A DNA stretch of 64,000 bases, from assembly GCF_011045215.1 (NCBI RefSeq), contig NZ_CP049201.1. The stretch is one strand, 5' to 3'. Shown here piece after piece: positions 56,301 through 59,300 of this stretch. Position numbers: made by a program. This DNA is from Escherichia coli (GTDB taxonomy: Bacteria; Pseudomonadota; Gammaproteobacteria; Enterobacterales; Enterobacteriaceae). Positions within the stretch are counted from its first letter, which is position 1. Each line of letters opens with the position of its first letter.

Positions 56301-59300
56301 TGATCTTCATCGCCACCGGTTCTGAAGTTGAACTGGCGGTTGCTGCCTACGAAAAACTGACTGCCGAAGGCGTGAAAGCGCGTGTGGTGTCCATGCCGTC
56401 TACCGACGCATTTGACAAGCAGGATGCGGCTTACCGTGAATCCGTACTGCCGAAAGCGGTTACTGCACGCGTTGCTGTAGAAGCGGGTATTGCTGACTAC
56501 TGGTACAAGTATGTTGGCCTGAACGGTGCTATCGTCGGTATGACCACCTTCGGTGAATCTGCTCCGGCAGAGCAACTCTTTGAAGAGTTCGGCTTCACCG
56601 TTGACAACGTTGTTGCGAAAGCAAAAGAACTGCTGTAATTAGCATTTTGGGTAAAAAGGTCGCTTCGGCGACCTTTTTTATTACCTTGACATGTCCGTTT
56701 TCGGACGAGCAATAGATAAAGCGTGTTGTAGATCACAAATATTTATATGCAATAAATATCAATTATGTAATATGCATCACGATATGCGTGTTGACATTTG
56801 TTGTTATATCTATAACTCAATGTTATATAAGAAATTAATAATTCACTGTTTTCAAAACACCGGTTTCCCTGCTCAATTGCTTTCATTAAACCGCACGAGT
56901 ATTTTATTTTTACCGCCGGACGGTACCCTAAAAATAAAATAAGGATAATTTATGCGGCTTAGTGATTATTTTCCAGAATCATCAATCTCAGTTATACATT
57001 CAGCAAAAGATTGGCAGGAAGCTATCGATTTCTCGATGGTATCATTGCTGGATAAAAACTATATCAGCGAGAATTACATTCAGGCAATTAAAGATTCCAC
57101 CATTAACAATGGCCCTTATTATATTCTCGCACCAGGCGTGGCAATGCCTCATGCGCGACCGGAATGTGGGGCGCTTAAAACCGGGATGTCTTTGACATTA
57201 CTTAAACAAGGCGTTTATTTCCCGGGGGATGACGAACCGATTAAATTACTCATCGGACTTTCTGCTGCCGATGCCGATTCGCACATTGGCGCTATTCAGG
57301 CGTTAAGTGAATTACTGTGCGAAGAAGAAATACTCGAACAACTCTTAATAGCATCATCAGAAAAACAATTAGCGGACATTATCAGCCGCGGATAATTACT
57401 CTCTCCTCTACAGGATAATATTATGGAAAACAAGTCTGCTCGTGCAAAGGTCCAGGCTTTTGGGGGCTTTTTGACTGCAATGGTCATCCCCAATATTGGT
57501 GCTTTTATTGCCTGGGGTTTTATTACTGCGTTATTTATTCCCACCGGTTGGCTGCCTAACGAACATTTCGCCAAAATTGTCGGCCCGATGATTACCTATT
57601 TATTGCCCGTGATGATTGGTTCTACCGGTGGTCATCTGGTCGGCGGTAAACGCGGCGCGGTTATGGGCGGAATAGGTACTATTGGTGTGATCGTCGGCGC
57701 AGAGATCCCGATGTTCCTTGGCTCAATGATTATGGGGCCGCTCGGTGGGCTGGTCATAAAATATGTCGATAAGGCACTGGAAAAACGCATACCTGCTGGT
57801 TTTGAGATGGTTATCAATAACTTCTCATTAGGTATCGCGGGGATGCTCCTTTGTCTGCTGGGTTTTGAAGTGATCGGCCCGGCGGTGTTAATTGCCAATA
57901 CTTTCGTCAAAGAGTGTATTGAGGCGCTGGTACATGCGGGTTATCTGCCTCTGCTGTCAGTCATCAATGAACCGGCGAAAGTGCTTTTCCTTAATAATGC
58001 GATCGATCAGGGCGTCTATTATCCGCTGGGAATGCAACAGGCTTCGGTTAACGGTAAATCCATCTTCTTTATGGTGGCCTCTAACCCAGGTCCGGGCCTG
58101 GGGCTGCTGCTGGCGTTTACCTTGTTTGGTAAAGGGATGAGTAAACGTTCTGCGCCCGGGGCGATGATTATTCACTTCCTCGGTGGGATCCACGAACTGT
58201 ATTTCCCATATGTGCTGATGAAGCCGCTGACTATTATTGCCATGATTGCGGGCGGTATGTCTGGCACCTAGATGTTTAACTTACTGGACGGTGGTCTGGT
58301 GGCTGGCCCAAGTCCGGGGTCTATCTTTGCTTACCTGGCGCTGACGCCGAAAGGTTCGTTCCTGGCGACAATTGCCGGTGTTACGGTAGGTACCCTGGTG
58401 TCCTTTGCTATCACTTCGCTGATACTGAAGATGGAAAAAACGGTGGAAACGGAGAGCGAAGATGAGTTTGCTCAGTCAGCCAATGCGGTTAAGGCGATGA
58501 AACAAGAGGGTGCATTCTCGTTAAGCAGGGTTAAGCGTATCGCCTTTGTTTGCGATGCGGGGATGGGCTCCAGTGCGATGGGCGCGACCACCTTCCGTAA
58601 ACGCCTGGAAAAAGCGGGGCTGGCAATTGAAGTAAAACATTACGCCATAGAAAACGTGCCTGCGGATGCGGATATCGTCGTTACTCATGCCAGTCTGGAA
58701 GGGCGCGTGAAACGTGTGACGGATAAACCACTGATATTGATTAATAACTATATTGGCGATCCAAAACTCGACACTTTATTTAATCAATTAACCGCCGAAC
58801 ATAAACACTGATTACAGAGGTAAAAATGAAAACCAAAGTTGCTGCTATTTATGGCAAGCGGGATGTCCGTCTGCGCGAATTTGAACTGCCAGAAATTACC
58901 GATAATGAATTACTGGTGAGTGTGATTTCTGACAGCGTCTGTTTATCCACCTGGAAAGCGGCGTTACTCGGTAGTGAACATAAACGCGTACCCGACGATT
59001 TAGAAAATCATCCGGTCATTACCGGGCATGAATGTGCTGGGGTTATTGTCGAAGTGGGTAAAAATCTCACTGGCAAATATAAAAAAGGCCAGCGTTTTGT
59101 ATTGCAACCGGCGATGGGGTTACCAAGCGGATATTCAGCGGGCTACAGCTACGAATATTTTGGCGGCAATGCCACTTATATGATTATTCCCGAAATCGCC
59201 ATTAATTTGGGCTGCGTATTACCGTATCACGGCTCTTATTTTGCTGCGGCGTCGCTGGCAGAGCCTATGTGCTGCATTATTGGTGCTTATCATGCCAATT

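Follow-up and report, generated by a model that had tools for sequence, protein, structure and literature searches.

Amber hotspots in the lacI gene of Escherichia coli, reportedly described by Coulondre and Miller in 1978, classically stem from the CCWGG sequences that Dcm methylates. These CCWGG sequences are established as hotspots of G:C>A:T change in E. coli (PMC13250602, PMC3527292). Two further systems bear on how an in-frame TAG in this species is to be read. One is the laboratory amber-suppressor strain (supE/glnV44, supF), in which in-frame TAG codons are tolerated, and Marshall and Levy are said to have described, in 1980, amber-suppressor coliforms from nature. The other is LeoABC, or Eleos, the dynamin-like system of the ETEC tia-leo island, in which leoC and leoB are separate genes; this split was re-sequenced in ETEC H10407 and is described as natural and as conserved in many bacteria (Michie et al., PMC4159319). 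Also directly comparable are two cmtA genes that RefSeq annotates as pseudogenes with an internal stop, those of the strains WEM25 (NZ_CP061530) and 700481 (NZ_CM129038), both of which carry TAG at codon 283.

Here we consider a stretch of 64,000 nucleotides from the E. coli chromosome, in the region of pheV, tkt and cmtBA (hereafter the window), in which that same codon of cmtA is TAG. A sequence-only reading had counted three amber-interrupted but otherwise intact genes within it and had offered two accounts of them: either the strain tolerates or suppresses amber codons, or independent nonsense mutations have struck dispensable genes. We conclude, with considerable confidence, that the cmtA TAG is nothing more than a nonsense mutation (TGG>TAG) causing loss of function in a PTS permease gene that is cryptic and dispensable, and that deamination of 5-methylcytosine is its most likely origin.

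The Amber Codon of cmtA

The cmt genes have been described as cryptic. In the window cmtA, which encodes a mannitol-type PTS EIICB, occupies 57423..58811 on the plus strand and persists as a pseudogene that retains its full length and its frame and has a single internal stop, in gap-free alignment to intact cmtA from several genomes. The stop is the amber codon TAG at 58269..58271 (plus strand), codon 283 of 462, produced by a G>A change at 58270, and the allele is referred to below as W283*. It divides the gene into two ORFs of one frame, which abut at GGC ACC TAG ATG TTT AAC: an N-terminal ORF at 57423..58271 (plus strand; 282 aa, covering the greater part of the EIIC membrane domain, PF02378), whose exact product is encoded on ~174 public contigs, and a C-terminal ORF at 58272..58811 (plus strand; 179 aa, the end of EIIC and the EIIB domain, PF02302), whose first residue is the native Met284 right after the TAG and whose exact product is found on ~176 contigs. 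The sequence-only reading had added these parts to 282 + 1 + 179 = 462 codons and had predicted TGG at codon 283, and both points hold: the sum equals the 462 aa of intact CmtA (WP_000428805.1), and the codon, when checked in K-12 MG1655, is TGG (ACC TGG ATG). TGG stands there in all but 1 of the 5,373 complete E. coli genomes matching the 61-mer, and W283* is a rare allele, carried by two (WEM25 and 700481) of ~5,400 complete genomes.

The neighbouring cmtB (EIIA; 56952..57395, plus strand) is intact by comparison with reference genomes, and yggP, glpX and fumE are likewise intact in the window. Only 2 nt distinguish the cmtA of the window from its intact counterpart in AHM8C212RI, namely a synonymous T/C at 57662 and the G>A at 58270. 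Because these neighbours are intact and an intact allele stands so close, one of the two differences being synonymous, the sequence comparisons point to a recent event.

Translation of CmtA would be expected to stop after residue 282 and to yield a truncated EIIC that lacks its last segment and the EIIB phosphoryl-transfer domain; since the end of EIIC and the whole of EIIB, both encoded by the downstream ORF, would be lost, the truncated permease is predicted to be inactive. It might instead be proposed that termination at the TAG is followed by reinitiation at the adjoining ATG, such that a 282-aa EIIC fragment and a 179-aa fragment comprising the EIIC tail and EIIB together form a split but functional permease. 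The native Met284 ATG does lie directly after the TAG, the 179 codons downstream are intact and identical to wild type, and the leoC/leoB pair provides a precedent, in the same window, for the persistence of a split gene. However, an intact downstream sequence is also what is expected of a recent mutation that is one base from intact alleles, the break falls inside the membrane domain, the allele is found in as few as 2 of ~5,400 complete genomes, and no Shine-Dalgarno-like sequence is evident, on reading the sequence, just upstream of the Met284 ATG. We regard a split permease made by reinitiation as exceedingly improbable and take an inactive, truncated CmtA as the expected product.

A Dcm Site as the Probable Source of W283*

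The ancestral ACC TGG of cmtA holds a Dcm site, CCTGG, at 58267..58271 (plus strand), which has been destroyed by the mutation and now reads CCTAG, and the mutated G, the first of the two in TGG, lies opposite the second C, the methylated one, of CCAGG on the bottom strand. A route from one state to the other can be envisioned as follows: Dcm would methylate the second C on each strand of the site, the 5-methylcytosine of the bottom-strand CCAGG would deaminate to T and so create a T:G mismatch, and a mismatch that escaped very-short-patch repair would be fixed as CCTAG on the coding strand. Judged by this context, Dcm methylation followed by deamination is the probable cause of W283*, and, because the site is a hotspot, the same allele has on this reading arisen repeatedly in unrelated E. 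coli lineages. The dcm gene itself lies outside the window.

Ten codons of cmtA are one transition away from a stop, and three of them (Q11, W31 and W283) fall within Dcm sites in a register that can give an amber codon; the other seven are W43, Q196, Q205, Q206, Q351, Q361 and Q455. Dcm-site amber alleles are present in public assemblies at all three: in addition to W283*, Q11* (CCAGG>CTAGG) occurs at 3 loci and W31* (CCTGG>CCTAG) at 2 loci, the latter on two different haplotypes. Q206*, which served as a non-Dcm control (context ACAGG), proved to be a genuine stop on no more than one haplotype, and over half of its contig count of 54 represents contig-end truncations. Exact truncated products of W283* are found on ~174 contigs, versus 5–54 for six non-Dcm transition-nonsense sites, but contig counts of this kind are confounded by contig-end truncations and clonal sampling, and haplotype counts were relied on instead.

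The likeness to the Dcm hotspots of lacI is close in two respects. In both genes a G:C>A:T change at the pair containing the methylated second C of CCWGG gives TAG, and in both the change recurs at one site while other Dcm-amber sites of the gene are changed too. The two cases differ in that cmtA presents standing variation in natural isolates rather than a laboratory mutant collection, and in that the companion amber codon of the window, in leoB, lies outside any Dcm site; the hotspot explains one of the two amber codons, that of cmtA, and not that of leoB.

Recurrence of W283* and Loss of cmtA across E. coli

Ten TAG-bearing cmtA sequences entered the haplotype comparison, those of the window, of WEM25 and of 8 public loci. 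W283* is carried on at least three cmtA haplotype groups that are 17–24 nt apart and lie in differing gene neighbourhoods, and each group has an intact counterpart among complete genomes that differs at 58270 only: AHM8C212RI for the window (with the one synonymous site in addition), strain cq9 for locus L008 and strain 720632 for locus L007. A single origin of the allele would need conversion tracts of <108 bp from the WEM25 type and of <75 bp from the L012 type, and independent recurrence is, on these sequences, a simpler reading than one origin moved about by very short gene conversion. The pseudogenes of WEM25 and 700481, which share TAG at codon 283 with the window, are a case in point: they belong to other DNA haplotypes (18–22 nt apart) and have other flanking gene content, and because of these differences the W283* alleles of the window, WEM25 and 700481 are probably separate events. 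WEM25 is 96.8–98.4% identical to the window and lacks its pheV island.

The same comparison bears on the suspicion that faulty sequencing or assembly produced the TAG. At positions 1–3500 the window departs from strain A12 by six single-base homopolymer differences, which could hint at error-prone sequencing, but W283* is a substitution and not a homopolymer indel, and the identical substitution is found in many independent assemblies; the TAG of leoB, for its part, recurs in the assembly that Logan made of run SRR11014969. Between 3600 and 62300, moreover, the ~48 genes with WEM25 or JNU orthologues are all full length and gap-free, with internal stops in leoB and cmtA only, and therefore nothing hints that the assembly is faulty around the cmt genes. 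We give an artefact next to no credence and treat W283* as a genuine allele.

Nonsense is one of many ways in which cmtA has been broken. The gene is interrupted in many genomes, including that of E. coli HS, by IS1/IS30 insertions and G-run frameshifts, and nonsense alleles occur at many of its codons in the species. To judge from its sequences in nature, cmtA is dispensable, as had been supposed from the sequence alone, and has been inactivated by diverse independent lesions across E. coli; the annotation of W283* as a pseudogene in two RefSeq genomes agrees with this. Outside the window strain, the adjoining yggP has frequently become a pseudogene as well.

The loss of cmtA and the recurrence of W283* might alternatively be driven mainly by positive selection, for instance for reduced aminoglycoside uptake, rather than by a mutational hotspot. 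Deletion of cmtA was the sole one of 26 transporter deletions to raise the tobramycin MIC in MG1655, and overexpression of CmtAB raised aminoglycoside uptake (PMC12412646, the one paper that a literature search on cmtA found); the many independent lesion types that inactivate the gene would also fit. Selection leaves unexplained, however, both the recurrence at the same base and the Dcm location of the recurrent nonsense sites, the decay of the adjoining yggP fits neutral decay of a cryptic operon, and the carriers of W283* come from sources as varied as beach water, stool and animals. Selection is in our view unlikely to be the main driver, and the hotspot is preferred as the reason for the recurrence. 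Since deletion of cmtA raises the tobramycin MIC and CmtAB promotes aminoglycoside uptake, selection for loss could nevertheless add to the frequency of cmtA-null alleles.

The leo Genes

A same-frame scan of the leo region returned TAG at 5314-5316 and at 6040-6042, and the sequence-only reading had placed both inside a single leoBC-like gene. That view did not survive comparison with strain JNU, which is 99.8% identical to the window here and in which leoC, leoB and leoA are annotated as three separate intact genes. In the window leoC (4699..5316, plus strand) is intact, 100% identical to the annotated leoC of JNU, and matches the PADLOC LeoC profile at 1.3e-77; its stop at 5314-5316 (plus strand) is the same TAG that ends leoC in JNU, where it is followed by GGGCTGACA and then by the leoB ATG. 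PADLOC keeps separate LeoC and LeoB profiles, and both match ORFs of the window. Because of the JNU annotation, the published conserved split (PMC4159319) and the separate PADLOC profiles, the TAG at 5314-5316 is the normal leoC terminator and interrupts nothing.

The second TAG is a true nonsense codon. The gene in which it lies, leoB (5326..7041, plus strand), is a pseudogene with one internal stop, gap-free and 99.8% identical to the intact leoB of JNU, and its two halves match positions 4–239 and 243–568 of the PADLOC LeoB profile (1e-106 and 3e-109). The amber codon at 6040..6042 (plus strand) is Q239*, a CAG>TAG change by C>T at 6040 in the context TCAGG, where JNU has CAG. The following leoA (7013..8746, plus strand) is intact by reference comparison, ends at a natural TAG stop and matches PADLOC LeoA at 2.5e-286. 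Of the three amber-interrupted genes that had been counted, then, two stand, cmtA (58269-58271) and leoB (6040-6042), and the third is the natural stop of leoC.

A Dcm origin was considered for the leoB codon as well and was rejected, there being no Dcm site in TCAGG. Fragments of leoB with Q239* are found on one public contig, from the Logan assembly of SRR11014969, which is 100% identical to positions 4283-9445 of the window and therefore represents the same strain or clone. The leoB change, a nonsense mutation by C>T, is private to the strain and separate from that of cmtA.

In comparison with the LeoABC (Eleos) system of the ETEC tia-leo island (PMC4159319), the locus has the same gene order (tia-leoC-leoB-leoA), matches the profiles strongly, shows the natural leoC(TAG)/leoB split within one frame and encodes LeoA, LeoB and LeoC in tandem; it differs in that the components are not all intact, leoB being interrupted by Q239*. 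The position of the island differs too, pheV in the window strain versus selC in strain JNU. Owing to the stop at leoB codon 239, the LeoBC partner is probably non-functional in the window strain.

Amber Codons and Suppression

Two amber nonsense mutations in the window are no more than chance gives. At both sites the orthologues have a sense codon that differs by a single base (TGG in cmtA, CAG in leoB of JNU). Among the transition routes to a stop in the window's genes, 692 of 1,207 (57%) yield TAG, and two TAGs out of two therefore has P ~0.33. The natural terminators of the window show an ordinary pattern (TAA 33, TGA 13, TAG 6), and the six that are TAG are conserved.

Other lesions are present as well: besides the two TAGs, the window contains one TAA nonsense codon and two -1 frameshifts, all in island genes. 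At the left end of the island, a 5'-nucleotidase gene is damaged twice, by TAA (TTA>TAA) at 1083-1085 and, near 1723, by a -1 frameshift within an A-run, and a gene for a phosphorothioate-DNA-binding restriction endonuclease (2113-3032, minus strand) is broken in two near 2611 by a -1 frameshift; this end also holds an integrase remnant, annotated in strains A12 and JNU, at ~3190-3375. This end of the island lies outside the ~48-gene comparison, and its decay was read from an NCBIfam match together with strain comparison. Within the window, in-frame TAG codons were not found in excess of other gene-breaking changes.

The amber changes of cmtA and leoB are both G:C>A:T transitions. A mutator or mutagenesis signature was rejected, given that mutY is intact and that a mutY defect would be expected to cause G:C>T:A transversions instead. 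The differences that are private to the window form recombination-like blocks and are not scattered.

The most far-reaching account of the two codons is that a suppressor tRNA or a weakened RF1 allows TAG to be read through, so that cmtA and leoB both stay functional. Two otherwise intact genes with TAG inside 64 kb would be in keeping with this, and both codons are followed by a purine (TAG-A and TAG-G), a 3′ context that is more favourable for suppression. It is important to stress, however, that one of the three TAGs first cited is a normal stop, that TAG is the expected majority result (57%) of transition nonsense mutations, that a TAA nonsense codon and frameshifts are found in the window too, and that the six natural TAG terminators of the window are conserved. 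The distribution of W283* is equally hard to reconcile with read-through, since an allele that is present in many unrelated lineages, and annotated as a pseudogene, would demand many suppressor strains. The sole tRNA in the 64-kb window is tRNA-Phe(GAA), no suppressor tRNA being found there, and prfA, like the loci in which suppressors usually arise, is located in other parts of the genome; a literature search for natural amber suppressors found nothing usable. The resemblance to laboratory suppressor strains (supE/glnV44, supF) is superficial and goes no further than the tolerance of in-frame TAGs, as the window has neither a suppressor tRNA nor an excess of amber codons and the affected genes are dispensable.

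The amber codons of cmtA and leoB have different mechanisms and different population histories, which speaks against a shared cause, for example a background that tolerates amber codons. The truncated cmtA product on ~174 contigs, versus leoB fragments on one, lends support to the second of the two accounts first offered, that of independent nonsense mutations in dispensable genes. Overall, nothing in the window calls for amber suppression, and read-through by a suppressor tRNA or a weakened RF1 is highly improbable. A broader proposition, in which the strain is a natural amber suppressor or UAG-leaky and makes full-length CmtA and LeoB or, in a milder form, in which a functional permease in two pieces is made by way of the TAG-ATG junction, is a shade less improbable, and we still consider it very doubtful.

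Biological Significance

With the base change, the ancestral state, the Dcm context, the occurrence on several haplotypes and the varied breakage of cmtA in nature all matters of observation, W283* is ordinary decay of cmtA, of a known mechanistic kind and in a gene whose pseudogene status is already recorded in the annotation of other genomes. There is no evidence in the window of altered stop-codon usage. For annotation, the leo region carries the caution that a conserved split gene such as leoC/leoB is not to be counted as an interrupted gene. W283* itself is a tidy example, from a natural population, of the classical Dcm amber hotspot and carries little weight for biology at large, while the recurrent loss of cmtA may be of interest to work on PTS decay or, as deletion of the gene raises the tobramycin MIC in K-12 (PMC12412646), on aminoglycoside uptake.

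Possible Recombination and Variable Gene Content in the Window

The single-nucleotide differences that are private to the window, defined against nine other E. coli sequences, are gathered in two clusters, at 57204-57349 and 60756-60906, in cmtB and glpX, and from their distribution these clusters look more like recombination tracts imported from elsewhere than like scattered new mutations. Within cmtA itself (57423-58811), contigs from several unrelated public assemblies (loci L044 and L046-L050) stop at the identical point, at about nucleotide 616-617 of the gene (codon ~206), and this shared contig end suggests a recurrent repeat or a recurrent site of IS insertion.

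Gene content varies as well. An ECF/ABC transporter cluster (62278-63997, minus strand) follows yggC and precedes the position at which epd would be expected, past the end of the window; some of the genomes that carry the cmtA TAG allele have this cluster and others are without it, and the region is therefore a mosaic. Between yggM and hemW the window has an inserted operon for a TRAP transporter (dctP, dctQ and dctM-like; 33719-36554, minus strand); strain WEM25, which carries the cmtA TAG allele, lacks this operon at that position.

Gene Decay at the Left End of the Window

Two genes at the left end are disrupted. The 5′-nucleotidase gene (1071-2040, plus strand) carries two lesions relative to strain A12: codon 5 (1083-1085) reads TAA in place of TTA, and an A-run near 1723 contains a -1 frameshift. 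Another -1 frameshift, within a homopolymer near 2611, breaks the gene for a phosphorothioated-DNA-binding restriction endonuclease (NF045808; 2113-3032, minus strand) into two ORFs. The A12 orthologue of the endonuclease gene is also a pseudogene, through another lesion (an internal stop). Compared with A12, positions 1-3500 hold six single-base deletions in all (498, 620, 979, 1723, 2611 and 3107), four of them within long A or T runs and the other two within short T runs; none of this kind was found in the genes compared over the remainder of the window. These deletions may be genuine, the product of slippage as an AT-rich island decays, or they may be homopolymer sequencing errors.

The pheV Island and the leoC/leoB Split

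An integrase remnant (about 3190-3375) and the tRNA-Phe gene pheV (21780-21855) lie at the two ends of a genomic island (~3190-21855). The island encodes a P4-type integrase (20422-21633), Tia, LeoCBA, an MFS transporter, an EcsC-family protein, a diguanylate cyclase, TPR and HTH proteins, and a phosphoethanolamine transferase (9125-10786) that is only distantly related to the MCR families, every match falling below the cutoff. In strain JNU, most of this island (to about 20610) is located instead at selC, the tRNA-Sec gene.

The genes leoC and leoB (4699-7041) share one reading frame and are separated by just a TAG and nine bases (TAG GGG CTG ACA ATG). This arrangement is a natural, conserved split of a dynamin-like gene; it has the appearance of an ancient nonsense-type break that has since become fixed, and it is readily misread as a pseudogene.
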